Both the position numbers and the translations under genes were made by a program. From contig JASFQK010000032.1 of assembly GCA_050115495.1 (NCBI GenBank), forward strand, positions 1 through 64,000: a stretch of DNA of 64,000 nt, given 5' to 3'. The DNA is from Phycisphaerae bacterium. Its GTDB lineage: Bacteria; Planctomycetota; Phycisphaerae; UBA1845; Fen-1342. How positions within the stretch are numbered: the first letter of the stretch is position 1; every line of letters begins with the position of its first letter. Shown one piece after another: positions 50,477 through 64,000 of this stretch. The notes below the pieces were generated by a model. That model worked only from the letters and a program-made list of their open reading frames with translations, was not told the origin of the DNA and ran no database searches.

Positions 50477-53023
50477 CTATTCCATCGGGAACTCGGCGGC
50501 TTCGTCGGCTTCTTCGCGGTCGCGTTGTGACCGGGCGGCCTGCCACTCCTCTTTGGTGACGATGACCTCGCGGGCCTGGCTGCCCTTGTACTCGCCGACG
50601 ATACCGGCTTCGTACATCTGGTCGATCAGGCGGGAGGCGCGGCCGTAGCCGATCGTGAGCCGCCGCTGGAGCAGGCTGACCGAGCCGCGACCGGTCTCGA
50701 TGACCGCGTCGACCGCCTGGTCGAAGAGCTCGTCGCGCTCGCCCGTCGTCGCCGCCCCGGCACCCGGCATGCGCACCAGGTCCGGATGGAAATCCGGGGT
50801 GCGTTGCTCGCGGCAGTGCTTCACGACGCTGCGCATCTCCTCATCGCTGATGAAGGTCCCCTGGGCCCGCAGCAGCTTCGACGTGCCCGGGGCGAGGAAG
50901 AGCATGTCCCCCTGCCCCATCAGCGTCTCGCCGCCGTTCTGATCGAGCACGATGCGTGAATCGAGCCGCGAGGAGACGCGGAAGGCGATGCGGCAGGGCA
51001 GGTTCGACTTGATGAGGCCGGTGACGACGTTGGCCTGCGGGCGCTGGGTCGAGACGATCAGGTGAATGCCGACCGCCCGGCTCTTCTGGGCGATCCGGCA
51101 CAGGTTGAACTCGACCTCCTTGGCCGAGGTCATCATCAGGTCGGCCAGCTCGTCGATGATGATCACGATGTAGGGCAAGTGCAGCGGGATGCGGGCGAGC
51201 TCCTCGTCGCTGGCGATGCTCATCCGCTCCTTCAGCCCGTCGCGGCCGAGCCGGTTGTAGGCGCGAATCTCCCGCACGCCGGCTTCGGCCAGCAGGGCGT
51301 AGCGCTCGTCCATCAGCCCCGTCGCCCATTCGAGGATGCCCTCGGCCTTGGCCGCCTCGGTAACGATCGGGCACATCAGGTGCGGGATGTCCTTGAACCC
51401 GGCCAGCTCGACCATCTTCGGGTCGACCAGGATCATGTTCACTTCGGAAGGCGACCGCGTGAGCAGCATCGACAGAATGATGCTGTTGACGCAGATGCTC
51501 TTGCCCGAGCCAGTCGTGCCGGCGATGAGCAGGTGCGGCATGCGGGTCAGGTCGCTGATGAGCGGCTGGCCGGAGGCGTCCTTGCCGAGGTACAACGGCA
51601 AGGCGAGATTGTCGGTCCGCCGGCCGCTCAGCTCCATGATGTCCCGCAGGCGGACCTTCTCCTTGTCGGTGTTGGGCACCTCGATGCCGATGGTGTTCTT
51701 GCCCGGGAGCGGGGCGACGACGCGCACCGCCGGTGCCTTCAGCGCCCGGGCGATGTCGTTGGAGAGCGAGGCGATCTGACTGACCTTGACGCCGGGGGAC
51801 AGCTTCAGCTCGAAGACGGTGATCACGGGGCCGGTCTCGATGGCGACCACCTGGACGCCCACGCGGAACTCGTTCAGCGTCTGTTCGAGGATGTACGCCT
51901 TCTCGCGACAGAGGACCTCGATCGCCGACTTGTCCATCGGGACGGGCGGTTCCAGCAGCTCCAGGGCCGGCAACTCGTAGTCGTCGTCCTCCGGGAGCGG
52001 TGCCGGTCGTCGCGTGCGCCGTCCGCCCGCAGCCCCCGCGCCCTTGCCGGCGGGCGCCTGGACCTCGGCGTGCGCCACGACCGGAGCAGCAGCGAAGCCG
52101 CTCTCGTCCACATCGCGGGCCGGGGCTTCGTCCGCCAGCCGCTTCTTCGCGGCGTCGAACGTAAGTTGCCGTGGTGGCTCGACTTCGACGGGCTCCTCCT
52201 CTTCGGCCTCATCCTCTTCCGCTTCGACCTCTTCGTCGACTTCTTCCTCTTCCTCCGGTTCTTCCTCTTCTTCCTCTTCGAGCTCCTCAGGCTTTGCGAC
52301 GGTCTTCTTCTTCCTCCTGGGGGCTGCGATCTCCTCCTCGGCGGGCTCCTGCCGTCCGTTGCCGGTCAGGCCGCGCGACAGCACGGTAACACCGGTGGCC
52401 ACACCCGAGGCGACGGCCGCACCGGTCTTGGCCACGGCTTCACCGCCGCGGGCTAGGACCGGGATCGACCGCCGGGATGTCCAGCCGAGCCAGCGGACCA
52501 GCCGCACCAACAGCTCGTCCGCCGCCAGCAGCAACCCGACAATCAGGGCGCAGCTCAGCACGATATGCGTGCCGGCGATGCGGAGCTGGGCCCGGCAGAA
52601 CGGGCCGACGGCCGCCCCCAAGACCCCGCCCGGACCCGTCATCAGGTACTTGTCCGAGGGCGACACGAGCAGCGCCCCCCACGTGCACACGGCGGCGGTC
52701 ACCAGGACCACGCCCAGGGCCCGCAACGCCGGATCACGTACCGGTACCTGTCGCGGCCAGGCCACCGCCATGAGGGTCAGCAGCCCCAGCAGGGCGTACG
52801 TGCCGATGCCCAGGTAATAGAAGAGGTAATAAGCGATCCAGGCCCCGGTGGAGCCGCAGAGGTTGCTCACACCCCCATCGGGGTTGAGCTGCCAGACGCT
52901 GCTCGCGGGCGGATCCCCCGTACTAAAACTGAGCACGCAGACCCACAGGAACAAGGCCGCGAGCCCGCGAATCGTCGTGAGGCAGAATCGAAGCGCCACG
53001 CGGCGCTCAACGCTCTGGGCCAT
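50477..53023 (-). CDS. ftsK: DNA translocase FtsK
   Basis: N-terminal 4TM domain (NLCGSTGA), acidic linker, ETGPVIT, PHLLIAGTTGSGKS, IDELADLM, TQRP, LMGQGDMLF and the gamma domain SLLQRRLTIGYGRASRLID. Confidence 0.96.
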   Translation of the reverse strand: MAQSVERRVALRFCLTTIRGLAALFLWVCVLSFSTGDPPASSVWQLNPDGGVSNLCGSTGAWIAYYLFYYLGIGTYALLGLLTLMAVAWPRQVPVRDPALRALGVVLVTAAVCTWGALLVSPSDKYLMTGPGGVLGAAVGPFCRAQLRIAGTHIVLSCALIVGLLLAADELLVRLVRWLGWTSRRSIPVLARGGEAVAKTGAAVASGVATGVTVLSRGLTGNGRQEPAEEEIAAPRRKKKTVAKPEELEEEEEEEPEEEEEVDEEVEAEEDEAEEEEPVEVEPPRQLTFDAAKKRLADEAPARDVDESGFAAAPVVAHAEVQAPAGKGAGAAGGRRTRRPAPLPEDDDYELPALELLEPPVPMDKSAIEVLCREKAYILEQTLNEFRVGVQVVAIETGPVITVFELKLSPGVKVSQIASLSNDIARALKAPAVRVVAPLPGKNTIGIEVPNTDKEKVRLRDIMELSGRRTDNLALPLYLGKDASGQPLISDLTRMPHLLIAGTTGSGKSICVNSIILSMLLTRSPSEVNMILVDPKMVELAGFKDIPHLMCPIVTEAAKAEGILEWATGLMDERYALLAEAGVREIRAYNRLGRDGLKERMSIASDEELARIPLHLPYIVIIIDELADLMMTSAKEVEFNLCRIAQKSRAVGIHLIVSTQRPQANVVTGLIKSNLPCRIAFRVSSRLDSRIVLDQNGGETLMGQGDMLFLAPGTSKLLRAQGTFISDEEMRSVVKHCREQRTPDFHPDLVRMPGAGAATTGERDELFDQAVDAVIETGRGSVSLLQRRLTIGYGRASRLIDQMYEAGIVGEYKGSQAREVIVTKEEWQAARSQRDREEADEAAEFPME

Positions 53024-53199
53024 GGAGAACCATCCTTGATTCTTCCCGTGCCCGTCCTCCTGCTCGGGCCTCTTTCCAGAGCGAGTATAACAGATGTCGC
53101 GTAATGGCGTCGAGTTGGATAATGTACGCGTCTGCGGTGCCGCACGGCGCGACGGCGCGGCGGCGGCGCCCGGGGTACTCGTCGGCAGGCCCAAGTCCC

Positions 53200-54036
53200 A
53201 TGCGCACAAGCAACGCTGCCATCCGATCGCTGGGCGCCATCGGGGCCCAGGCTACGGCCCTGCTGGCCGGCTTCGGGCACTTCTGGACGTTCGGGGCGAG
53301 CGCCGCAGCTTACGCTCCACTGGACATGTGCACGCTGCGCGGCTGGCGGCGATTCCTGCCGCAGTGCTTCTACATCGGCACGCGCTCGGTACCGGTCATC
53401 ATGCTGACCGGCGCGTTCGTGGGCATGGTGCTGATCGTGCAGGGCTGGGACCAGTTCGACGCCGCCGGCCTGACCGACCGCCTGGGGGCGATCGTGAACA
53501 TCTCGGTGGCGGCGGAGCTCGGCCCGGTGCTGGCCGGGGTGATGCTGGCGGGCCGCGTCGGCGGGGCACTGACCGCCGAACTCGGCACGATGAACGTCAC
53601 CGAGCAGCTACTGGCCCTGCGATCAATGGGGGCGGATCCGATTCGCTTCCTGGTCACGCCGCGGTTCCTGGCCTGTCTGCTGCTGGCGCCGCTGCTGACG
53701 GCCTACGCTGACCTGATGGGCGCCCTGGGGGCGTGGCTCATCTTCTCCGGCGTGAAGGGTGGCGCCTCGGCGCCGTTCTGGAGCTACTCGGCCGAGATCG
53801 TCGAGATGTGGGACCTGTGCACCGGGATGATCAAGGCGATCTTCTTCGGCGGGGCGATCGGCCTGGTCAGTTGCTACCGGGGATTTCATTGCCGGCCGGG
53901 AGCCCAGGGCGTCGGCCAGGCCTGCACCGAGGCTTTCGTCATCAGCTTCATGTCGATCCTGGTGCTGGACCTGTTTATCAACTTCGTCATGAACGGGCTG
54001 TACACCGCGTGGTACGGCTTCCGGTCGCTGATCTAG
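53200..54036 (+). CDS. mlaE: MlaE/YrbE family ABC transporter permease
   Basis: ELGPVLAGVMLAGRVGGALTAELGTMNVTEQ, PRFLA and GAQGVGQACT. Confidence 0.9.
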   Translation: MRTSNAAIRSLGAIGAQATALLAGFGHFWTFGASAAAYAPLDMCTLRGWRRFLPQCFYIGTRSVPVIMLTGAFVGMVLIVQGWDQFDAAGLTDRLGAIVNISVAAELGPVLAGVMLAGRVGGALTAELGTMNVTEQLLALRSMGADPIRFLVTPRFLACLLLAPLLTAYADLMGALGAWLIFSGVKGGASAPFWSYSAEIVEMWDLCTGMIKAIFFGGAIGLVSCYRGFHCRPGAQGVGQACTEAFVISFMSILVLDLFINFVMNGLYTAWYGFRSLI

Positions 54037-54048
54037 CCGGAGACGAGC

Positions 54049-54837
54049 GTGGTTGAAGTCGCCGACCCGATCATCGAGCTTCGCCGACTGAGCAAGTCGT
54101 TCGGCGCGCAGCGCGTGCTGGACGACGTGGACCTGCGCATCGAGCGCGGACAGACGACGGTGATCATCGGCCGCTCGGGTACGGGCAAAAGCGTGCTGCT
54201 CAAGCACATCGTGGGGTTGCTGCGGCCGGATCGGGGTGAGGTTTACTTCGCCGGCCAGCGGGTGGACCAGCTCGGCGAGCGGCAGTTCGTGCCCATTCGC
54301 CGGCAGATCAGCTTCGTCTTTCAGCTCAACGCCCTGTTCGATTCGATGAGCGTCGCCGAGAACGTCGCCTTTCCGATGATGGAGAACAGCGCGGCGCCGC
54401 TTCGGCGGCGGGAGATCATGGCGCTGGCCTCGCGGCGGCTGGAGATGGTCGGACTGGCCGGGTTCGAGGACAAGCGGCCGGCGGACCTGTCGGGCGGCGA
54501 GAAGAAGCGCGTGGCCGTGGCGCGGGCCATCGCCATGGAGCCGCCGCCGAAGGTCATCCTGTACGACGAGCCCACCGCCGGGCTCGACCCGCAGCGCAGC
54601 GACGTGATCAACCGATTGATCCGGCAGTTGCAGCAGGACGTGGGCGTGACCGGGATCGTGGTGACGCACGACATGCGGCTGGCGACGGACGTGGGTCACC
54701 GCATTCTGATGTTGTGGAACGGCCGCTTCATCGCCGACGGCACGCCGGCGCAGCTCCAGCAAACGCGGAACGAGCACGTGCGGCGGTTCATCGAGGGTCA
54801 GGCGGAGCCTGAGGATATTCACACCCTGACATCCTGA
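54049..54837 (+). CDS. mlaF: MlaF/Mkl family ABC ATPase
   Basis: GRSGTGKS, ALFDSMSVAENVAFP, LSGGEKKRV, YDEPTAGLDP and VVTHD. Confidence 0.88.
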   Translation: MVEVADPIIELRRLSKSFGAQRVLDDVDLRIERGQTTVIIGRSGTGKSVLLKHIVGLLRPDRGEVYFAGQRVDQLGERQFVPIRRQISFVFQLNALFDSMSVAENVAFPMMENSAAPLRRREIMALASRRLEMVGLAGFEDKRPADLSGGEKKRVAVARAIAMEPPPKVILYDEPTAGLDPQRSDVINRLIRQLQQDVGVTGIVVTHDMRLATDVGHRILMLWNGRFIADGTPAQLQQTRNEHVRRFIEGQAEPEDIHTLTS

Positions 54838-55005
54838 ACTCACTCACGGATCACACCATTCACAGTCGCCCGGGAGCCCGCCGGGCGAGATTTGCTTCGG
54901 ACACCGGCTATCGGCAAGACTTGCCTGTCTGATAAAAACAGGTCGACAAACAGCCAAACGCAGATCTTCTCGCGCGGGCCGAAAAATCTTCGCGACTTGC
55001 CGAAT

Positions 55006-55038
55006 TCAAGCAAGTTTTATGGGCAATCCGACCGATAG
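55006..55038 (+). promoter_or_regulatory. Possible sigma-28-type promoter upstream of the flgM-like gene
   Basis: TCAAG/CAAGTTTT followed by ACCGATAG (55031-55038), resembling TAAAGTTT-N11-GCCGATAA. The spacing is 1-2 nt off consensus. Confidence 0.35.
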
Positions 55039-55197
55039 AGCCTTTAGAGCGAGTGGGGCCGGTGCAGACTGACAGCCGACGGAGCGGTCAGCAGTCCACC
55101 GGCAACTGACGATCCCGACATTCAGGGAGGAACGTCGGCCGACACGGGCTGTGTTTTATGCGCGCCGTGGCGCGCGACTGGAAGGCTGTAGTCTGCC

Positions 55198-55476
55198 ATG
55201 TTGGAAATTGCCCCCCATACAAACCGCACCGTAAACCCGGCTCTGTCGGGTGTTGTGCCCAACCAGAACCCCAAGGCGCAGGCGCCCGCCGCATCGCCCG
55301 AACAGAGCGATCGCGTCGAGCTGTCCGAGGCGGCCCGCACGTATGAGGCCGACAGCGCCGCGGATGTCCGTATCCGCGACCTGCGGGCTCAGATCGCCGC
55401 CGACGAGTACATCACGGACGACATGCTGGACGTTGTCGTCGACCGCCTGCACGAGGAGCTGTTCGGCAAGGCCTAA
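55198..55476 (+). CDS. flgM: Anti-sigma-28 factor FlgM-like protein
   Basis: 92 aa; disordered N-terminus, DRVELSEAAR, and RIRDLRAQIAADEY...LDVVVDRL, the conserved FlgM C-terminal pattern. Confidence 0.75.
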   Translation: MLEIAPHTNRTVNPALSGVVPNQNPKAQAPAASPEQSDRVELSEAARTYEADSAADVRIRDLRAQIAADEYITDDMLDVVVDRLHEELFGKA

Positions 55477-55488
55477 GCCGGCCGCCGT

Positions 55489-55872
55489 TCAGCGTGGTTC
55501 GCGACGACGGCGCCGCTGCGCCGCCTCGTATTGGGCCACGATCGTCGAGCGCATCCCCCCGCGCGGATTCCAGTCCGTCTGCACGAGCAGCCGGCGCGGC
55601 CGCAGCGCGGCGACCAGATCGTCGAGGATCCGGTTCGTCAGCGCCTCGTAGAACGCGCCTTCGTCGCGGTACGCCTGGAAGTACAGCTTCAGGCTCTTGA
55701 GCTCGACGCAGAGCTTGTCGGGCGTGTACTCGATGGTCACCGTGCCGAAGTCGGGTTGCCCGGTCAGGGGACAGCGGCTGGTGAACTCCGGCGCCACGTG
55801 TCGGATCACGTAGTCACGCCCGGGGCTGGGGTTATCGAACGTCGCCAGCACTGTCTTGTTCGCTTTGGCCAC
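55489..55872 (-). CDS. queF: NADPH-dependent preQ0 reductase QueF (short, type I)
   Basis: PEFTSRCPLTGQPDFG, VELKSLKLY, GAFYE and PRGG. AGGAGG RBS favours the GTG at 55872. Confidence 0.95.
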   Translation of the reverse strand: MAKANKTVLATFDNPSPGRDYVIRHVAPEFTSRCPLTGQPDFGTVTIEYTPDKLCVELKSLKLYFQAYRDEGAFYEALTNRILDDLVAALRPRRLLVQTDWNPRGGMRSTIVAQYEAAQRRRRREPR

Positions 55873-56142
55873 GGCGGGCACCTCCTGCGCCGCACGGTCC
55901 TCGCGGCCGCCACGCCGACGGCCGGCAGGATTCCGGCTGCCCGTAGTGTAGTGCGCCGGCGGGAGGCGGAAAGGAGCACACCTCGCCCCGCAGGCGAACT
56001 CCGCGCAACGTCCGCGCGAAGAATAGCCCCGCGTCCGCGAATTCCCTCTTGGGCAGCCATCGCGCGCGCTGGGCTGTAAGCCTTCGTAAGACGCGTCGTT
56101 TTTCTAATTCCGTTACTCGCTGGAGCGATTACACTTAAGGTG

Positions 56143-56553
56143 ATGGAAGGTACCGGCGGCGGCATTCTGGGACGCCTCGGCGAGAAGGTGCTCGGCTGGA
56201 TCGCCCTGGCGCTGATCGTCGCCCTCGGTTTCGGGCTCTACAAGATCGGCGCCCCAGGTCGGCAAGCACTCTGGGGGGCCATCTGGCGTACCAGTCTATG
56301 GGTGGCCGTGGTCGGCGCCCTGCCCTGGACGATCCGCCTGTTCATTCGGCGGATCCTGGAGCTGAGCTCGAACTGGGCCGGCGTGGCCGTAATTGGCTCC
56401 TACGTCGTGCTCGACGCCCTGCTGGGCGTCATCCTGCTGAACGGGTTTCCCGCCGGCGGGTGGGGCTGGTTGCTGACATTGGCCGCCCTGGCCCTCGCCG
56501 GCACGTATAATTTTCTGGTGGCGGAGTACCTGTCCGAGCAAACCGGCCTCTGA
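56143..56553 (+). CDS. Four-TM membrane protein, first gene of the ESCRT-like operon
   Basis: Four hydrophobic segments; TACACT at 56130-56135 lies just upstream of ATG 56143. Confidence 0.75.
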   Translation: MEGTGGGILGRLGEKVLGWIALALIVALGFGLYKIGAPGRQALWGAIWRTSLWVAVVGALPWTIRLFIRRILELSSNWAGVAVIGSYVVLDALLGVILLNGFPAGGWGWLLTLAALALAGTYNFLVAEYLSEQTGL

Positions 56554-56597: not shown

Positions 56598-57659
56598 ATG
56601 ACCAAGTATCAGGCGGGTATGCGGATCAGCGAATACGTGCTGGAGAACTGCATCGGCTCCGGTACGTTCGGGGAGGTTTGGCAGGCCCGGCACCACGTCT
56701 GGGACAGCGAGCACGTCGCGGTCAAACTGCCGACCGAGCCGGAATACGTTCGTTACTTGCAGCGCGAGGGCGTGGTCGTTCACGGACTGCGCCACGCGAA
56801 CATCATCCGCGTCATTGGCTTCGACCCCTTCGCCGAGAATCCGTACCTGGTCATGGAGCTCGTCCGCGGCCCGTCGCTACGGCAGGTGATCGACGAGCAC
56901 CCCACCGGTCTGTCGATCGACGTCACGCTCTGCGTGCTCCGCGGCCTGCTGCGGGCCATGGAAGCCGCCCACGCCGGCGGCGTCCTGCACCGCGACCTCA
57001 AGCCCGGCAACGTCCTGCTCGACCTCAACGAGCGCCCCATCGAGGAGCTGACCGTCGACGACGTGAAGATCGGTGACTTCGGCCTCGGCGTGAAGAACGC
57101 CGAGTCGCTGCGCTCCATCGCCCAGTCCGCCTCGCTGGCCCGCGAGGACCAGTTGGTAGGCACGCTGGCGTACATGGCCTCCGAGGTGCGCGACGGCGAC
57201 CTGAAGCCCGACGCCCGGAGCGATCTGTACTCCGTCGGCGTTGTCCTGTTCGAAATGCTCACCGGTGAGCGGCCGGCCGGCGCCGAGCTGCCCAGCACGG
57301 TCCGGGCCCAGACGCCCCCCGGGCTGGACGAGGTATTCCGCCGGCTGTACGCCCGGCACGACCGCCGATACGAGAATGCCCGGGCGGTGCTGGACGATCT
57401 GGACGCGCGGTTGACCGTGAAGCGTCCATCTGTGGTGATGGTGCCGCCACCGCCGCCGCCGCGGCTGGGTGTGGTGGGCAAGCCCGACTACTGCCCGCGG
57501 TGTCAGCACGTGGTGGGTCCGGACGATCAATTCTGCACGCAGTGCCGGTACCAGTTGGTGCCGCACGTGCGGCGCTGCCCGTCGTGCGACGGCTATCCGG
57601 GGCTGCACGACCGCTTCTGCATCTTCTGCGGCGCAGCGCTGCCGGACGAGGAGGAGTAG
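56598..57659 (+). CDS. Soluble Hanks-type Ser/Thr protein kinase with C-terminal double zinc ribbon
   Basis: IGSGTFGEV, VAVK, HRDLKPGN, DFG, GTLAYMASE, DLYSVG; poly-Pro linker; CPRC...FCTQC and CPSC...FCIFC; no TM. Confidence 0.93.
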   Translation: MTKYQAGMRISEYVLENCIGSGTFGEVWQARHHVWDSEHVAVKLPTEPEYVRYLQREGVVVHGLRHANIIRVIGFDPFAENPYLVMELVRGPSLRQVIDEHPTGLSIDVTLCVLRGLLRAMEAAHAGGVLHRDLKPGNVLLDLNERPIEELTVDDVKIGDFGLGVKNAESLRSIAQSASLAREDQLVGTLAYMASEVRDGDLKPDARSDLYSVGVVLFEMLTGERPAGAELPSTVRAQTPPGLDEVFRRLYARHDRRYENARAVLDDLDARLTVKRPSVVMVPPPPPPRLGVVGKPDYCPRCQHVVGPDDQFCTQCRYQLVPHVRRCPSCDGYPGLHDRFCIFCGAALPDEEE

Positions 57660-57665
57660 CGTCCC

Positions 57666-57953
57666 GTGCTGCTGGCGGACAGCGTCATCCTGATCGTCTT
57701 CGGGTTGCTGTTGATCGGCATCATCGGGTTCTTCTTCATGTCGGTGGTGCTGGTGACCCGCTTCTTCCGCTTCGTGTTCCGACTGATGGCCGGCACGGGG
57801 CGGCCTCCGGTGCCGCCGATGCCGACGAAGCCAGTCCGCACCACGCCCTGCCCGGCCGAGCGCTGCGGCAACCCGAACCCGGTCGGAGCGCAGTACTGCG
57901 CCCGCTGCGGGCGACCCCTGGCCCGCGAGGCTGATCTCGATGCCTATGGATGA
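57666..57953 (+). CDS. Small membrane-anchored zinc-ribbon protein
   Basis: Long N-terminal hydrophobic helix, Pro-rich linker, CPAERCGNPNPVGAQYCARCG. Confidence 0.75.
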   Translation: MLLADSVILIVFGLLLIGIIGFFFMSVVLVTRFFRFVFRLMAGTGRPPVPPMPTKPVRTTPCPAERCGNPNPVGAQYCARCGRPLAREADLDAYG

Positions 57954-59388
57954 GCGCAGCCGGCTGCGACAGTTCGAGGAGCATTTCCACCAGCAACTGC
58001 GGACCCGCGCCGCCACGCTTCTGCGCGGCGCCCTGCCGGCCGACCGCCTCATCATCGAAGCCATGCCCGACGGCGTCGACACCGTGCGGGCCACGCTGAC
58101 CCGGCTCGAACGCTACGACCGCGACCTCGTCGAGCAACTCCCCGGCACGCGCACCGTGCAACTCCGCTTTCGGCGGAACGTGCTGGGCGGTCTGCTGTCG
58201 CGACCGGTGGCCCGGGTGCGGGCGCAGATGCTCGCTCCGCTCGAAGCCCTGGTCAGCGGAGAGGCCGTCGGCCCGATCGGTCGCGAGGCCGTCCTCGACG
58301 CCCTCGCCCGCTACGAGCTGATGCCGCGCAGCGAGCGTCCCACCGCGGTCATCTTCGCCAGCGCCACCGGCTTCACGCCCGAGGCGAAAGCCCTGGTCAG
58401 CGTCCCCGGCCCAGCCCGCCTGATCCTGATGAACGGGCGTGACGACGGCGGCTGGGACGTGGTCATGCCCGACGCCGTGCGCAGCGGACCCTGGGCGCGG
58501 CTGCTCGAGTTCGAATCGCAGGACGACCGCTTGCAGCGTTTGCGGTATCATCTGGACAAAAGCGCCACGTTGCTCGATTCGCGGGGCATCTCGATCGCCG
58601 AACTGGCCGAGCAGACCGGGCTGTCCCCCGAGCAAACCGAGGCCCTGATCCGCAAGGCCTGCCGGCTGGACTCGCGTCTGCTGACCGTGGTACATGAGAA
58701 CAGGGTCCATGTATGTCGCAGCCCCCTGAGCGATGAGAACAACGCCATGAGTATCTGGAGCCGAATCCGCCGGTTGTTGCGGCTCAAGCCCACCGCCGCC
58801 GAGCAGGTACGCACCCTGACGGTGCAGCGTGTGGCCCTGGAGCAGCAGCGTCACGAGGTGGATCAGAGGATCAGGGCGCTCGAGGCGGAGGAGTTGCAGG
58901 CCGTCCAGAGCGGTGCCGCCGCCAAGAGCAACGCCGAGCGCAAGCAGATCGCCGGACGGCTGGTGCGGGTGCGGCGTGACCTGCGCCGCGTGCGCTCGCA
59001 GGCCACCGTCTTCAGCCAGCAGATCGACATCCTGGGCACGCATATCCACAACCTGACGCTGGCCGAGCAGGGCCGGCGGCTGGAGCTGCCCAAGGCCGAG
59101 GAGCTGACCCGTCAGGCCGCGGAGGCCGAGCAGGTCGTCAGCGAGTTGGCCGCCAACGCCGAGTTGGCCGCCGGCATCGAGGTCGGAGCCACCACGCCGG
59201 AGATGGAAGAGGAGGAGGCCGCGATCATGGCGGAGTTCGCCCAGGTCGCCGCCGAGTCCGCTCCCGCGGCACCGGCGGCCGAAGCGACGCCCGCCGCGCC
59301 GGCCCCGGCCGAGGAGCAGCGCGCCCCGGCGGCAAAGGCCCCACCGTCCGCCGAAAACAAGGAGAAGGCCGGGCCCGAGATGGGCTAA
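57940..59388 (+). CDS. Multidomain protein: restriction-endonuclease-like (Mrr-cat-like) domain + winged helix + ESCRT-III/Snf7-like coiled coil
   Basis: GPIGREAV...VIFASATGFTPEAKAL...LILMNG; ISIAELAEQTGLSPEQTEALIRKA plus a beta wing; then MSIWSRIRRLL, a long helical hairpin and the acidic helix EMEEEEAAIMAEF. Start overlaps the upstream stop (ATG 57940 or 57946). The ORF is secure; the domain calls are by eye. Confidence 0.65.
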   Translation: MPMDERSRLRQFEEHFHQQLRTRAATLLRGALPADRLIIEAMPDGVDTVRATLTRLERYDRDLVEQLPGTRTVQLRFRRNVLGGLLSRPVARVRAQMLAPLEALVSGEAVGPIGREAVLDALARYELMPRSERPTAVIFASATGFTPEAKALVSVPGPARLILMNGRDDGGWDVVMPDAVRSGPWARLLEFESQDDRLQRLRYHLDKSATLLDSRGISIAELAEQTGLSPEQTEALIRKACRLDSRLLTVVHENRVHVCRSPLSDENNAMSIWSRIRRLLRLKPTAAEQVRTLTVQRVALEQQRHEVDQRIRALEAEELQAVQSGAAAKSNAERKQIAGRLVRVRRDLRRVRSQATVFSQQIDILGTHIHNLTLAEQGRRLELPKAEELTRQAAEAEQVVSELAANAELAAGIEVGATTPEMEEEEAAIMAEFAQVAAESAPAAPAAEATPAAPAPAEEQRAPAAKAPPSAENKEKAGPEMG

Positions 59389-59415: not shown

Positions 59416-60024
59416 ATGAACTTCTTCACCTGGCTGACCACGAAGCGCAAGACCCTGGCGACGATGACGCTCACCGAGCTGCGCGCCCAGGAGATGATGC
59501 TCGAAAACGAGCGCAACCGGATGCAGACGCGCGTCACCAAGCTCGCTCGCGAGAAGCAGCAGATCATCGACCGCGGCGCCAAGGAGAAGACGCCCGAGCT
59601 GCGCCGCACCTTCGCCCAGCAATACGACCTGCTGCACACCGAGCAGATGATGCTCGCCCGCCACCTGAACATCCGCAGCAAGGAGTACCTCACCGTCGCC
59701 CGGCTGCGCATGCTCCGCGAGAACACGCAGCGGGCCGGCGTGGGCACCAGCGCCCGCACGCTCATCCGCGAGGGCGACCTGGCCGTCATCGAGCGCCTCA
59801 TCGAAAACGACCGCGTCTCCACCGAGGTCTACCAGGAGCGGCTCGACGAGATCCTGCGCCTCGGCCAGGAGGCGGACGAGGCCACGGCCGGCGTCTCCCC
59901 TGCCGCCGGCGAACTGCTCAAGATCTGGAACGACATGGATGCCGGACTGATCAAGGACACCGACGCCGCCTTCGACGAGGCCGAACGGCGCGTCCGCGAG
60001 CGCGAGAAGGCCGCCGACGCCTGA
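59416..60024 (+). CDS. ESCRT-III/Snf7-like coiled-coil protein
   Basis: 202 aa, all helical; amphipathic N-terminus MNFFTWL; basic N-terminal hairpin, acidic C-terminal half. Confidence 0.6.
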   Translation: MNFFTWLTTKRKTLATMTLTELRAQEMMLENERNRMQTRVTKLAREKQQIIDRGAKEKTPELRRTFAQQYDLLHTEQMMLARHLNIRSKEYLTVARLRMLRENTQRAGVGTSARTLIREGDLAVIERLIENDRVSTEVYQERLDEILRLGQEADEATAGVSPAAGELLKIWNDMDAGLIKDTDAAFDEAERRVREREKAADA

Positions 60025-60047: not shown

Positions 60048-60656
60048 ATGGGCCTGTTCAAGTCCAAAGAAGAACGCCGGATGGAACGCGATATGAAGAT
60101 CCGCCAGGGCATCCGGCGGATCGAGAAGGCCATCGCCGAGCAGAACAAGTTCACGGATGAGTTCGTCAAGAACGCCCGGCAGGCCCGGCAGATCGGCGAC
60201 ATGGCGTCGTACCAGTTCGTTCGCAACTCGCTGAAGAAGACGGCCACGATCAAGAAGCTGCTCGAACGGCAGCTCCTGGCCGTCAAGAACGCCCTGCTCA
60301 TCAAGCGCCAGGCCGAGGCCGGCGCCGATTTCGCCCAGGCCATGAGCACCATGGCCTCCGAGGTGAGCCGCCTCTACGGCGACACCGACCTCGTGAAGAC
60401 GCAAATGGACTGGGAAAAGGCCATGATGCAGTCGCAGTCGATGGAGGAGCGCATGCAGATGTTCCTCGACTCGATCGAGGAAGGGGCGGCGGCCGACGTG
60501 CGTGCCGCCGCGAGCGAGGCCATCTCCGACGAGGAGATCGACCGCATGATCGAGGCCGAGGAGCAGGTCGAGGACGCCCGCGAGGCTCAGCAGATGAGTG
60601 CCCTCCGTGCCGAGCTCGCCCAGCTCAAGAATCCCGGTGCGAAGGAAACCAAGTAA
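60048..60656 (+). CDS. ESCRT-III-like protein resembling the Vps2/Vps24/Did2 (CHMP1-3) class
   Basis: 202 aa; MGLFKSK start, basic helical hairpin, AQAMSTMASEVSRL...DLVKTQMDWEKAMMQSQSMEERMQMFLDSI, ISDEEIDRMI, and a terminal ALRAELAQLK (MIM1-like) helix. Confidence 0.72.
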   Translation: MGLFKSKEERRMERDMKIRQGIRRIEKAIAEQNKFTDEFVKNARQARQIGDMASYQFVRNSLKKTATIKKLLERQLLAVKNALLIKRQAEAGADFAQAMSTMASEVSRLYGDTDLVKTQMDWEKAMMQSQSMEERMQMFLDSIEEGAAADVRAAASEAISDEEIDRMIEAEEQVEDAREAQQMSALRAELAQLKNPGAKETK

Positions 60657-60693: not shown

Positions 60694-60876
60694 ATGAGCG
60701 ACTACGACGAACGACAATGGGGTGGCTTGCCGGCCCTGGGCCTGCTGGCGCTGGCCACGGCCCTGGCCTGGCTCTTCACCAACCCCTACCTGGGCTTCGT
60801 GATCGTCTTTGCCAGCGGCGTCGCCGTGCTGGCCGCCGTCGATTTCCTCCGGCGGCGCTCGCGGCCGCGTTCATAG
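60694..60876 (+). CDS. 60-aa two-TM membrane protein
   Basis: ATG at 60694; two hydrophobic helices and an Arg-rich tail; co-directional within the operon. Confidence 0.6.
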   Translation: MSDYDERQWGGLPALGLLALATALAWLFTNPYLGFVIVFASGVAVLAAVDFLRRRSRPRS

Positions 60877-60939
60877 AACCGAGGTTCGTCCGCGCGGCGG
60901 GCCTTCCCGGCGCGGTCTTTGCGGAGCAGGGCGGGCAAC

Positions 60940-62064
60940 ATGGCTGCAACTTTCGCCACGTTCAAGCGACTCAAGGACAAGGGCTTGACCGCCCTCAAGC
61001 AGGGTGACTACGTCACCGCCCGCCCCTACCTCATCCAGGCCGCCGAGTGCATGATCGAGATCGCCGAGGAGAACCGCGACGCGACGCAGCGTGCCGAACA
61101 GGAAGCCTACGCCCGCGAGCTGATCGATCTCGCCAAGGACTGCTCGCGCCGCTCGCGCGAGGGTGGCGGCGGCGGCCGTACCGGCGACCGCGCCCGTGAA
61201 GATGAAGAAGGCGGCGCGAGCGCCGACGACTGGATCGTCCGCGAGAAGCCCAATATCCACTTCACCGACATCGCAGGTCTGGAAGACGTCAAGGAAGAGA
61301 TCTACCTCAAGATGATCTACCCCTTCCGCCATCCGGAACTGGCGCAGCACTACGGCATCGACACCGGCGGCGGCCTGCTGCTCTACGGCCCGCCCGGCAC
61401 CGGCAAGACCATGATCGCCAAGGCCGTGGCCTGCGAGGTCGAGGCCACCATGTTCGTCATCAGCCCGGCCCAGATCATGAGCAAGTGGGTCGGCGAGGCC
61501 GAGCAGAACGTCCGCAAGCTGTTCGAGGCCGCCAAGGATGAAGAGAAGAGCGTCATCTTCATCGACGAGATCGAGGCGCTCGTGCCGGCCCGCCGCCGAT
61601 CCGACTCGACCGTCATGCAACGTGTCGTGCCGCAGATCCTCCAGGAGCTCGAGGGGTTCGACCGCCGGGCGGGGCGGGCCCTGATGTTCATGGGGGCGAC
61701 GAACGAGCCGTGGAGCCTCGACCGGGCGGTGATGCGGCCCGGGCGCTTCGACTCCCGCGTGTACGTTCCGCTGCCCGATCCGGCGGCCCGCTTCAAGCTG
61801 TTCGAGATCTACCTCGGCAAGCGGCCCCTGGAAGACGACGTCGATTTCGCGGCCCTCGTCGAGCAAACCAACGGCTACAGCGGGGCCGACATCAAGGCCA
61901 TCTGCACGCGTTCGGCAACTCGTCCGTTTTTGGAATCGGTTGGCGGCGCCGAACCACGTAAAATTAATATGGCGGACGTGCGGGAGACGATCGGCGAAGT
62001 TCTGCCGTCCGTCAGCTCGAAGGACTGCCAGAAGTACGAGGAGTGGGCGGCCACGATGGGCTGA
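60940..62064 (+). CDS. Vps4/CdvC-like single-domain AAA+ ATPase with N-terminal MIT-like three-helix domain
   Basis: N-terminal helices KGLTALKQGDYVTARPYLIQAAECM...YARELIDLAK; IVREKPNIHFTDIAGLEDVKEEI; GPPGTGKT; SKWVGEAE; IFIDEIE; GATNEPWSLD; GYSGADIK; C-terminal PSVSSKDCQKYEEW helix. Confidence 0.82.
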   Translation: MAATFATFKRLKDKGLTALKQGDYVTARPYLIQAAECMIEIAEENRDATQRAEQEAYARELIDLAKDCSRRSREGGGGGRTGDRAREDEEGGASADDWIVREKPNIHFTDIAGLEDVKEEIYLKMIYPFRHPELAQHYGIDTGGGLLLYGPPGTGKTMIAKAVACEVEATMFVISPAQIMSKWVGEAEQNVRKLFEAAKDEEKSVIFIDEIEALVPARRRSDSTVMQRVVPQILQELEGFDRRAGRALMFMGATNEPWSLDRAVMRPGRFDSRVYVPLPDPAARFKLFEIYLGKRPLEDDVDFAALVEQTNGYSGADIKAICTRSATRPFLESVGGAEPRKINMADVRETIGEVLPSVSSKDCQKYEEWAATMG

Positions 62065-62093: not shown

Positions 62094-62456
62094 ATGCCAC
62101 GACAACCGGTTCGCGACGTGCCGGGTCTGCGGCGATGCCCGTCCCCTACCTGCGATGGCCTGAACCCGGCGCGGGCCCGCTACTGCGGGCAGTGCGGATG
62201 TGCGCTGTACCGGCCGCCGGCCGCGGTCGCGCGCCAGGCGCCGATCAGCGCCGGCGTCGCGTATGGGCTGTGGGCGCTGTGTTTGGCCGGGGCGGCGGGG
62301 ATCCACCGCTTCTACCTCGGCCGGTACGTCACCGGGGCCGTTTGGCTGCTGACCTGGGGTCTGCTGGGCGTTGGATCGTTCTTCGACCTGTTCCTGATCC
62401 CCGGCATGGTCGAGAAGCAGAATCGCGATTGGGCGGCGGCGGGCTGGACGAACTGA
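62094..62456 (+). CDS. Zinc ribbon + TM2 domain protein
   Basis: GGAGG RBS; CPSPTCDGLNPARARYCGQCG; AYGLW...GIHRFYLGR...LLTWGLLGVGSFFDLFLIPGMV TM2 signature. Confidence 0.88.
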   Translation: MPRQPVRDVPGLRRCPSPTCDGLNPARARYCGQCGCALYRPPAAVARQAPISAGVAYGLWALCLAGAAGIHRFYLGRYVTGAVWLLTWGLLGVGSFFDLFLIPGMVEKQNRDWAAAGWTN

Positions 62457-62487: not shown

Positions 62488-64000
62488 ATGAGCCGCAGCA
62501 TCGTGGAACGTCTGGCCGACGAACACCTGGTGGCTCTTGCCGCCGCCGGGGACGCGTGGCCGCGCGCCCTGCTTTCGACCACGCCGGTGCCCGACGGCTG
62601 GCTGGCGCTGGTCGAACGCCGCGACGGCGGCCGCCGGCTCGTTCCCGCCGGCGAGGATCCGGCGGCGGAGCGCGGCGATCGACTACTGCTCGTGCGCGAT
62701 CGGTCGCTCACGGTGCCGCTGCACCTCGCGGAGGTACGCACCGCTTCGGGACACGCCGTGTCGGCTACGGTGGAGATCGTCCTCCGCTGGCAGGGCCGCG
62801 ATGATGATGTCGCCGCTCTGGGCCGCTCGCTGCTGGTCGGCGACGAGCTCACCCTGGATCAACTGGCCCGGGCCGTCGATGATGGCGGCGGGCGCGCAAC
62901 ACTGCTCGCCTTCATTCGCGAGCGTGGCGCCGTCGACCTCGTGCACGAGGATTGCAGTGCCGACCTGCTCGCCGTCCTGCGCGAGGGGTTCAAGCGCTTC
63001 CTGTTTTCGAGCGGGGCGACGCTCGAACGGCTGGCCGTGGCACGCTTTGCGAGTCCGGCACTCGCCGAAGAGGAGACGCTCCGCCGCGAGACGGCCGCCC
63101 ACGTCGAGCGGATCAAAGCCCACGAGATGGTGCAACAGGCTGCGCTCGCCGCCACGCAGCGCCGCCTCGAAGGGCTCAGCGGCATCTTCACTCAGCTTCA
63201 GTCCGCCGCCGGCGGCGACGAGCGCATGCAGTGGCACGACCTGCTGCCCGCCCTCTCGCCCGGCGATCGTGGTCGCCTGCTCGAAAACCTGTGGCGCATC
63301 ACACCCGACCGCTATACCGCCACTGCAATCGTGGTCGTCGCCGGCCAGGAATGCCTGTGGCTCGCCCCGGCGCCGCCACACGATATAACGCGTCGCGTGA
63401 CACTCGCCGAAAGTCTAGGCGGTGTGCGCTCGGTGGCGTTCTGTTCGCAGCGCAACTGGCTGCTGGTCGGTGCGGCACGTGGCGTGTGGGCCCTGGCGGC
63501 TGACAGCGGCGAAACGCAGGGTTGCTTCGAAGTGCCCGACGCGCCGGCGCCACGCACGGGCTTCAACGCGATCGCGGTCGCCGGCGACGTGCTCTACGCG
63601 ACGCACTCGCAGCTTGGCTGCTGGCGTTGGCCGCTGGCGGAGCCGGACAAGGCCGAATGTCTGCTCGCTCCGGCGGACGGTCAGCCTCGCGCGGTCCGCG
63701 CCGTCACGGCCACTGACGACGGTCGCATCCTATTCGCGACCGATCAGACCGTGCAGCTCTACGACCCGGCCGCCGGCAGCGTCACGGCGCTCGCCGACGC
63801 GGGCGACACGATCCACAGCCTGGCCACGATCGAGCAGCACGTGTTCATCGGTACGGCTGACGGCCGCATCCTCCAATGCGCTCTGGACGGCGGCGGCGAG
63901 CACCGCGTCGTGCACCGCGCCCGACACGCCATCGAGTCCATCCAACCCCGCCGCTGGAACGACCTGATCGAGCTCGTCATGCCCGCGGGGATCGAGGGCA
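62488..64000 (+). CDS. Partial ORF (runs off the window): SPFH/Band-7-like N-terminal domain, coiled coil, beta-propeller
   Basis: AAGGAG then ATG at 62488; read by hand with no in-frame stop for 504 codons. VPDGWLALV...LVPAG, EVRTASGHAVSATVEIVLRW and FLFSSGATLERLAVARFASP are SPFH-like. GVRSVAF, GFNAIAV, AVRAVTATDDG and IHSLAT...VFIGTADGRI are WD40-like blades. Confidence 0.75.
   Translation, partial: MSRSIVERLADEHLVALAAAGDAWPRALLSTTPVPDGWLALVERRDGGRRLVPAGEDPAAERGDRLLLVRDRSLTVPLHLAEVRTASGHAVSATVEIVLRWQGRDDDVAALGRSLLVGDELTLDQLARAVDDGGGRATLLAFIRERGAVDLVHEDCSADLLAVLREGFKRFLFSSGATLERLAVARFASPALAEEETLRRETAAHVERIKAHEMVQQAALAATQRRLEGLSGIFTQLQSAAGGDERMQWHDLLPALSPGDRGRLLENLWRITPDRYTATAIVVVAGQECLWLAPAPPHDITRRVTLAESLGGVRSVAFCSQRNWLLVGAARGVWALAADSGETQGCFEVPDAPAPRTGFNAIAVAGDVLYATHSQLGCWRWPLAEPDKAECLLAPADGQPRAVRAVTATDDGRILFATDQTVQLYDPAAGSVTALADAGDTIHSLATIEQHVFIGTADGRILQCALDGGGEHRVVHRARHAIESIQPRRWNDLIELVMPAGIEG

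Follow-up and report, generated by a model that had tools for sequence, protein, structure and literature searches.

The open reading frame at 60940..62064 (+ strand) of the window, that is, of the whole stretch of 64,000 nucleotides of Planctomycetota DNA that was analysed, probably encodes the recycling motor, a Vps4-type ATPase, of a bacterial ESCRT-III system, and its lineage would have kept an ancestral arginine-finger loop, longer by two residues. The surprise lies in the bacterial ESCRT context and in the fact that the state of this loop splits Vps4-like ATPases into two clades, whose members often share one locus. The phylum in which the pairing is found is one whose membranes are unusual, and neither FtsZ nor PspA was recognized above cut-off in the window's genome, which is 92% complete. 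A 2025 review of ESCRT-III (PMC7619361) considers that a Vps4-like ATPase appears to be absent in bacteria, while Ravi 2024 (PMC11237479) describes Vps4-like genes in bacteria, there with snf7 displaced, and notes that certain bacterial PspA or Snf7-clade genes lie next to AAA ATPases of other kinds. In the available parts of the literature (PMC10936438, PMC11237479, PMC7619361, PMC8281802, PMC5039278, PMC4686814 and PMC7203096 among it) we found no operon of this kind with a bacterial Snf7-type ESCRT-III and a Vps4-like gene, and two of these publications state in the parts available that the ESCRT-III/Vps4 pairing is absent from bacteria.

The ATPase gene belongs to a run of genes that are all on the + strand; these genes, together with two segments of the ATPase to which we refer below, are:

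56140..56553, + strand: 137-aa hydrophobic protein, probably a membrane protein; first gene of the conserved run, with no family match in Pfam or NCBIfam
56601..57659, + strand: Ser/Thr protein kinase with a C-terminal double zinc ribbon; conserved in close loci
57666..57953, + strand: small zinc-ribbon protein whose N-terminal part has a hydrophobic stretch
57940..59388, + strand: 482-aa fusion of an arCOG09748-like N-part and a coiled-coil C-part
59416..60024, + strand: ESCRT-III-like protein E1, 202 aa; matches Snf7 arCOG09747 and arCOG09749
60048..60656, + strand: ESCRT-III (Snf7-superfamily) protein E2, 202 aa; homolog of arCOG07402
60694..60876, + strand: hydrophobic ORF of 60 aa that separates E2 from the ATPase; without a homolog in 16 related loci
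60940..62064, + strand: ATPase, 374 aa; MIT-like domain, single AAA module with a long RPGRFD second region of homology, Vps4-type C-terminal helix
60940..61161, + strand: N-terminal three-helix MIT-like domain of the ATPase, residues 1-74
61699..61752, + strand: sensor 1 to arginine-finger loop of the ATPase, TNEPWSLDRAVMRPGRFD, T254-D271; R266 and R269 invariant
62094..62456, + strand: zinc-ribbon and TM2-domain membrane protein; TM2 45 bits, above cut-off
62488..64000, + strand: probable SPFH/Band-7, coiled-coil and beta-propeller protein, 587 aa; its end (C32:64251) lies past the window

The ATPase frame opens with an ATG, and its homologs begin at or near this position; there is also an in-frame TTG at 60919. 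No sigma-70 promoter match and no informative terminator were seen in the locus. In contigs of one metatranscriptome 26 of 30 bins were covered at a low and flat depth, compatible with DNA carry-over.

The protein reads EKPNIHFTDIAGLE, GPPGTGKT, SKWVGE, IFIDE, GATNEPWSLDRAVMRPGRFD and PSVSSKDCQKYEEWAATMG. In the AlphaFold2 model the N-domain has helices at residues 5-20, 24-44 and 48-74 (pLDDT of the block 78-93), a disordered linker follows at residues 76-96 (pLDDT<50), and a single AAA module leads to a terminal helix at residues 360-373. Thus the motifs quoted in a preliminary description of this sequence, along with the three-helix N-domain, the linker and the one AAA module, are all there, and its claim of a Cdc48-type RPGRFD loop in place of a short RRRF is confirmed: Walker A, Walker B, K182-W183-V184-G185, ATNEPW and R266-P267-G268-R269 are invariant in 41 of 41 aligned homologs, and of the 120 closest homologs listed, 93 have RPGRLD as their loop and 27 have RPGRFD. 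In the alignment the long loop has two residues more than the RRF/SRF-type proteins. According to PMC5039278, an adjacent arginine pair (an extra conserved arginine right before the arginine finger) defines the meiotic clade of Vps4/CdvC, katanin, spastin and fidgetin; the window ATPase does not have this pair. On sequence grounds it is therefore outside the meiotic clade sensu stricto, since the short RR loop is absent and RPGR[F/L]D is found in all 120 homologs listed; a single AAA module, an aromatic-hydrophobic pore loop 1 and a C-terminal helix are meiotic-clade features that it does have.

General database searches place the ATPase between Vps4 and Cdc48. With Pfam it scores 138 bits for AAA and 23.5 bits for Vps4_C (cut-off 21.3). 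The best NCBIfam model is that of the crenarchaeal CdvC (NF041006) with 246 bits, far under its cut-off of 650, followed by CDC48 with 234 (cut-off 803) and PAN with 230. In sequence, Foldseek and VIA searches p97/Cdc48 D2 comes first or is tied with spastin and with the Vps4 of M. sedula; in the whole-model fold searches the matches were filled by the AAA domain. The region of pore loop 2 (...QRVVPQIL) resembles Cdc48 D2 more than it does the RR found in short-loop Vps4. These are among the points against a Vps4 reading, to which can be added that the sister clade described below includes bacterial TPR-AAA proteins with TPR neighbours. They also qualify the Vps4 parallels drawn originally: SKWVGE and the terminal helix are both present, but SKWVGE is also found in archaeal Cdc48 D2 (P0275, P0281) and the terminal helix aligns with that of p97 D2, and therefore neither is diagnostic of Vps4. 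The traits that do discriminate in the alignment are the N-domain and the tryptophan of ATNxPW, which almost every long- or short-loop row has and no Cdc48 or FtsH row does. The N-domain barrel and the tandem D1-D2 arrangement of Cdc48/p97/VAT are both missing from the 374-aa protein, which shares with these enzymes the RPGR loop, the KWVGE pore loop, the terminal helix and the top raw similarity, but falls outside the Cdc48 rows in the best trees. A beta-domain is indeed absent, as first described, because residues 105-374 of the model are colinear with residues 97-367 of M. sedula Vps4, while yeast Vps4 needs residues 129-433 and eukaryotic Vps4 in general carries the insertion. We rejected the idea that this lack is special: it is normal for archaeal Vps4, the crenarchaeal enzyme having no beta-domain according to the available text of PMC4686814.

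The N-domain behaves as a divergent MIT domain, and not as a TPR, which is in keeping with the MIT-like label originally given to it. There is no Pfam MIT match in the window ATPase itself; among 22 N-domains of the family, MIT is matched by 2 and TPR_2, weakly, by 8. The profile of these 22 domains matches TPR proteins mostly over positions 14-37, whereas its whole-domain matches among natural PDB structures are MIT structures, each of them weak (2mpk, which we take to be a MIT domain, E 2.5e-4); against SKD1, VPS4A and VPS4B the E-values are 0.1-0.8. In profile-profile comparisons the N-domain is linked to that of the bacterial short-loop paralog at 97%, of euryarchaeal Vps4 at 95% and of Meth_adaptin at 93%, more weakly to the TACK/Asgard-type and eukaryote-type MIT at 28%, and to a TPR control consisting of two sequences at 0.2%; the Meth_adaptin N-domain in turn reaches the eukaryote-type MIT at 95%. 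The top ESM Atlas matches of residues 1-80 are MIT clusters (0.87), which we regard as lead level only. A complex prediction for residues 1-78 of the N-domain with the E2 tail (residues 150-202) gave 0.24, against a mark of 0.32.

The identification of the neighbours as ESCRT-III rests on family profiles; Pfam Snf7 matches nothing in the window's own genome. For the E2 family as a whole, Snf7 is matched by 15 of 65 members and PspA by none. Its profile finds CHMP2A as the best PDB sequence match (E 2e-5), with CHMP3, Snf7 and CdvB2 lower and CagA chains in between, and Foldseek ranks CHMP2A, CHMP1B, CHMP3 and Asgard ESCRT-IIIB above Vipp1 for the E2 model, although all of these have E>0.001 (best CHMP2A, 5e-3). 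Against arCOG07402 E2 scores 95 bits (hhalign 99.1%). Its N-half is basic, its C-half is acidic and it ends in a terminal helix; the tails carry aliphatic residues at i, i+3/4 and i+7 in 58 of 65 members, a loose pattern counted without a shuffled control. From its affinity for Snf7 over PspA, its charge polarity, its terminal helix and the predicted helical hairpin core, E2 is, by sequence, an ESCRT-III protein of the Snf7 branch. E1, for which Pfam has no match, belongs to a family that scores 33 and 31 bits with arCOG09747 and arCOG09749 of T. peptonophilus (E ~1e-10 against 18 test proteins). In the 482-aa fusion the N-part corresponds to the C-terminal globular and winged-helix region of arCOG09748 (hhalign 95.8%, E 8e-9), and the C-part, a charge-polarised coiled coil with no Pfam match, is probably a third ESCRT-III-like domain. 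The arCOG labels are those of the T. peptonophilus plasmid locus as given in Table S1 of PMC10936438.

The 587-aa protein is assigned by its family, in which Band_7 is matched by 2 of 12 members (best E 7e-6), the window member itself having no match; WD40-type matches are weak and below cut-off, and there is no PDB match. No CdvA family match was found among the ATPase neighbours with Pfam or NCBIfam. The 16 related loci come nearly all from Planctomycetota, and one from Dehalococcoidia; an E2-type gene is present in 14 of them, the two misses being contigs of 4.4 and 6.3 kb. The ATPase gene usually lies right after E2, and the long-loop gene is often directly followed by the SPFH-like gene. 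The arrangement differs in one locus (L012:789-9152), where the stretch with the ESCRT-III genes is flipped with respect to the ATPase gene and the SPFH-like gene. Upstream of the run, at 50477-55881 of the window, inspection points to ordinary genes for an FtsK-like translocase, an MlaE/MlaF-like ABC pair, a QueF-like ORF and a FlgM-like protein, the last with a weak Pfam match; FtsK is present in a genome in which FtsZ was not found.

The position of the ATPase among its relatives was studied with a FastTree tree of 119 of 161 cores and with IQ-TREE analyses of hand-picked sets of 61 and 62 rows, which were composed without the longest branches (such as L153, L167, L168, L176, L214 and L240). 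As references the trees contain metagenome RRF-type proteins, plasmid-borne euryarchaeal Vps4 and Cdc48, FtsH and archaeal proteins; PAN/Rpt, Msp1, Halo_adaptin and Thermoplasmata are not among them. The metagenome references that we take to be TACK-like, Asgard-like, eukaryotic Vps4-like or katanin-like were so labelled by motif; three of the metagenome references have Pfam MIT and Vps4_C above cut-off. In the final IQ-TREE the window family is a clade of its own (100/99), whose sister clade (100/98) unites Methanosarcinales proteins and bacterial TPR-AAA proteins with a viral copy and with the second ATPase of locus L009; the long-loop clade that they form together has a joint support of 100/98. 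L307 and the second L009 ATPase are long-loop single-module proteins. All short-loop rows (Vps4/CdvC/katanin-like) form one clade (99/94), where euryarchaeal Vps4 groups with the short-loop paralogs of bacteria (100/100), and the two clades stand together apart from Cdc48 D1/D2 and FtsH (99/92). The FastTree tree and the other IQ-TREE analysis have the same shape, and it is kept when the loop columns are removed (SH-aLRT 97/92/90 in a quick tree). The suggestion of a deep-branching Vps4-like enzyme is therefore upheld, as the maximum-likelihood trees make the long-loop clade sister to all the short-loop proteins sampled; nor is the AAA module nested in a bacterial family free of ESCRT, since it has its own clade with a strong ESCRT-III association. 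An origin of the window family by duplication of the bacterial short-loop paralog followed by re-insertion of the loop was rejected (p-AU 0.00012).

A challenge to this history comes from the AU test, which leaves standing a tree that joins the long-loop clade to Cdc48 D2 (p-AU 0.103 and 0.10). Such a tree would mean that the window family, Meth_adaptin and the bacterial TPR-AAA proteins arose separately from Cdc48 D2, gained their MIT domain on their own and converged on the same function; the ATPase would therefore be a Vps4 analogue, and would say little on the rise of the meiotic clade. The D2-like SKWVGE, RPGR and RVV traits, the position of p97 D2 at the top of the sequence and fold searches, and the swap of the N-domain for TPR repeats inside the long-loop clade are all in line with it. 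It nevertheless appears unlikely, because the free tree is better by 19.8 log-likelihood units, the joint branch has the 99/92 support given above, ATNxPW unites long- and short-loop rows to the exclusion of Cdc48 and FtsH, and the N-domains of the two groups are homologous. If the ATPase is instead a true Vps4 relative, as we prefer, it is likely a half-way stage in the origin of the Vps4/katanin/spastin motor family: MIT, a single Cdc48-derived AAA module and ATNxPW would have come first, and the shortened RRF/SRF loop would have appeared later, on the branch to the euryarchaeal Main, TACK, Asgard and eukaryotic enzymes.

The closest known relatives are the Meth_adaptin Vps4s (arCOG01307) of Methanolobus vulcani (WP_091710184, our P0311) and M. 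psychrotolerans (WP_094228177, P0364), both placed under Meth_adaptin in the published Vps4 tree (PMC10936438), from which it follows that a long-loop 'Vps4' is already within the accepted archaeal set. Both read ATNEPW...RRPGRF, and so do all 85 archaeal matches of less than 420 aa. This disposes of the idea that the RPGRF loop is peculiar to the window protein, and likewise of the candidate reading that RPGRF Vps4-like enzymes are unique to these bacteria. The main text of PMC10936438 does not contain the word 'arginine', and RPGR does not occur in the eight supplementary files searched. The window ATPase is 42% identical to WP_091710184 over 342 aa, N-domain included, but only 33% over 291 aa to the Main-clade Vps4 of T. 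peptonophilus. With Meth_adaptin it has in common the MIT-like N-domain, the single AAA module, SKWVG, ATNEPW, RPGRF and the lack of a beta-domain; the Meth_adaptin systems also have an SPFH gene (section 5 of PMC10936438), of which the window run has a probable counterpart. It differs from them in its bacterial host, its separate subclade, its C-terminus (a Vps4-type terminal helix, against PSI.SWY in Meth_adaptin) and its neighbours, which are Snf7 and winged-helix genes of the Main-clade type; no adaptin, GOLD or ProX gene was identified in the window run.

The Main-clade ESCRT operon of the T. peptonophilus plasmid comprises arCOG09748, 09747, 09749, a kinase, Vps4 and 07402, to which the winged-helix fusion, E1, E2 and the kinase of the window correspond, although in the window the winged-helix domain is fused to a coiled coil; neither arCOG08177 nor a phosphatase was seen in the window run. 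The Main-clade Vps4 has a short loop (AVLSRF) and is sister not to the window ATPase but to the second, short-loop bacterial paralog. As to the bacterial 'VPS4-like' AAA of Ravi et al. 2024 (PMC11237479), which has TPR and 6TM neighbours and also occurs in Planctomycetes according to the available text, it resembles the window ATPase in being a bacterial single-module AAA called Vps4-like; there, however, snf7 is said to be displaced, while the window has two to three ESCRT-III genes. The TPR-flanked AAA proteins L288, L295 and L307, which fall in the long-loop clade, may belong to the same family as Ravi's example ACB74714.1. By the features that Makarova et al. 2024 (PMC10936438) use for Vps4, the ATPase would count as a Vps4, having a MIT-like domain and an ESCRT neighbourhood. 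On the third feature, a place with Vps4 and apart from Cdc48, the result is two-sided: the tree groups it with Meth_adaptin (100/98) and with all Vps4 rows (99/92), but the D2 alternative is not rejected (p-AU 0.10).

The association with ESCRT is strong also in its spread. E2 is present in 77 of the 401 Planctomycetota genomes sampled, and the long-loop ATPase in at least 53 of the 401 (the match in G269 being borderline); 50 of these 53 also have E2, so that the two are together in 50 of 401 genomes, about one in eight, counts that are not independent because the carrier genomes are related. In three genomes of family f89 the ATPase lies away from E2. We sampled 40 of the 77 E2 regions, with preference for longer contigs and for a spread over families; by motif, 27 of these have the long-loop type and 26 the short-loop type, with both in 18, the short type only in 8, the long type only in 9 and neither in 5 (the long-loop ATPase is absent from 13). 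The short-loop paralog mostly reads SKYFGES and AVLSRFEK; in the two-ATPase operons a serine replaces its first arginine (LSRF), as in the Vps4 of T. peptonophilus. Several loci (L010, L011, L014, L016, L133, L134, L157, L158 and others) have up to four ESCRT-III-like genes, with MIT-AAA paralogs of opposite loop type flanking E2. Loci L142, L144, L145, L148 and L149 come from genomes of families f60 and f36; in f60 E2 occurs with a short-loop ATPase at varying distance, and this family is not among the long-loop matches.

The co-occurrence of two motors raises the question of which one acts on the filaments. It is conceivable, though improbable in our judgement, that it is really the short-loop paralog of the two-ATPase operons that takes ESCRT-III apart, and that the long-loop enzyme acts on another member of the system, for example the SPFH/propeller scaffold or cargo, or joins the paralog in a hetero-hexamer. 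The 18 regions with both types and the 8 with the short type only would agree with this, and so would the SPFH-like gene that often comes right after the long-loop gene, as well as the SPFH gene of the Meth_adaptin systems. On the other hand, the window's genome has only the long type among its AAA matches and three ESCRT-III-like genes; nine of the 40 regions are long-only by motif, even if L153 and L168 have a partial or divergent short-loop gene by HMM; and the long-loop gene usually lies directly after E2. A broader picture, which we put forward tentatively, is that Planctomycetota have an ESCRT machine of archaeal type that is old and resident, with as many as four ESCRT-III subunits and a pair of Vps4-like motors from across the deepest split of the family, one with the ancestral Cdc48-type and one with the derived meiotic-clade loop; both motors would act side by side on the same filaments, perhaps sharing out the work or joining in a mixed ring. 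These loci, which have the two loop types in a single operon and the same candidate substrates for each, offer a direct way to test the proposed origin of Vps4 from Cdc48 and to see what the two-residue deletion changed.

That the system is a cell-division machine of planctomycetes that have no FtsZ, like Cdv in Sulfolobus, is a reading that we consider improbable. The lack of FtsZ and PspA matches in the window's genome speaks for it; against it, E2 was found in only 77 of 401 Planctomycetota genomes sampled and in none of the 20 same-class genomes listed as 98-100% complete, there are related loci on a plasmid and in members of Chloroflexota, and the kinase and SPFH partners fit archaeal systems proposed for protein sorting rather than Cdv. 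Because the occurrence is so patchy, repair, vesiculation or sorting is favoured over division. Lastly, a general-purpose TPR-adaptor unfoldase of an ordinary bacterial family with incidental coiled-coil neighbours, for which the weak TPR matches of the N-domain and the TPR-AAA proteins of the sister clade could be invoked, is hardly credible given the 0.2% link to the two-sequence TPR control, the separate clade of the window family and the ESCRT-III gene of 50 out of 53 carriers.

A Vps4-type recycling ATPase is therefore the reading that we retain, and by analogy it probably works like Vps4, in view of the intact Walker A and B motifs, the aromatic pore loop (W183-V184), the two invariant arginines and the linkage to ESCRT-III. 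R269 and R266 should presumably act in trans, as in Cdc48. The filaments would be polymers of E1, E2 and the winged-helix fusion on the cytoplasmic side of the inner membrane, and their sites may be set by the SPFH, TM2 and small membrane proteins, while the kinase probably regulates the assembly and its timing. The ATPase would assemble into a hexamer on binding ATP (by analogy with the enzymes described in PMC5039278 and PMC4686814), its MIT domain would grip the terminal amphipathic helix of E2 (or E1), and the ATP-bound hexamer could then thread the tail through its pore past W183, unfolding and releasing the subunit. Such release would remodel or recycle the filament, for membrane repair or vesiculation.

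Some related arrangements were noted elsewhere. In a Dehalococcoidia MAG (L009:5304-9086) E1 stands with a long-loop ATPase of the Meth_adaptin side (RSGRF), E2 and an ATPase of the window type, so that this locus has two long-loop enzymes; its E2 matches Pfam Snf7 above cut-off. A plasmid of Ca. Chlorohelix allophototropha (NZ_CP128401.1; L299:1-4655) carries a Ser/Thr kinase and a Vps4-like ATPase of the short-loop type along with two ORFs that resemble ESCRT-III, and this enriched Chloroflexota bacterium is a possible experimental host. A metagenome contig (L222:1-6488) has a protein with a helix-turn-helix and an arCOG09748-like winged helix, an E1-type gene, a short-loop ATPase and a kinase that carries an additional domain at its C-terminus. 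In a head-tail virus-like sequence of IMG/VR (L298:3289-5384) a coiled-coil ORF of ESCRT-III size, with no Pfam match, is paired with a MIT-like long-loop AAA ATPase whose closest cellular relatives are the Methanosarcinales Meth_adaptin Vps4s; the pair sits between genes that look by inspection like portal and capsid genes. Domains of the E2 type also occur N-terminal to a P-loop domain that by inspection looks of the FtsK type (P0203, P0214, P0219, P0220, P0229, P0232, P0241, P0248, P0251 and P0260), several copies having a degenerate Walker A, and in P0171 and P0176 an E2-like domain is at the C-terminus of a protein of ~420 aa, following an N-terminal domain of no named kind.
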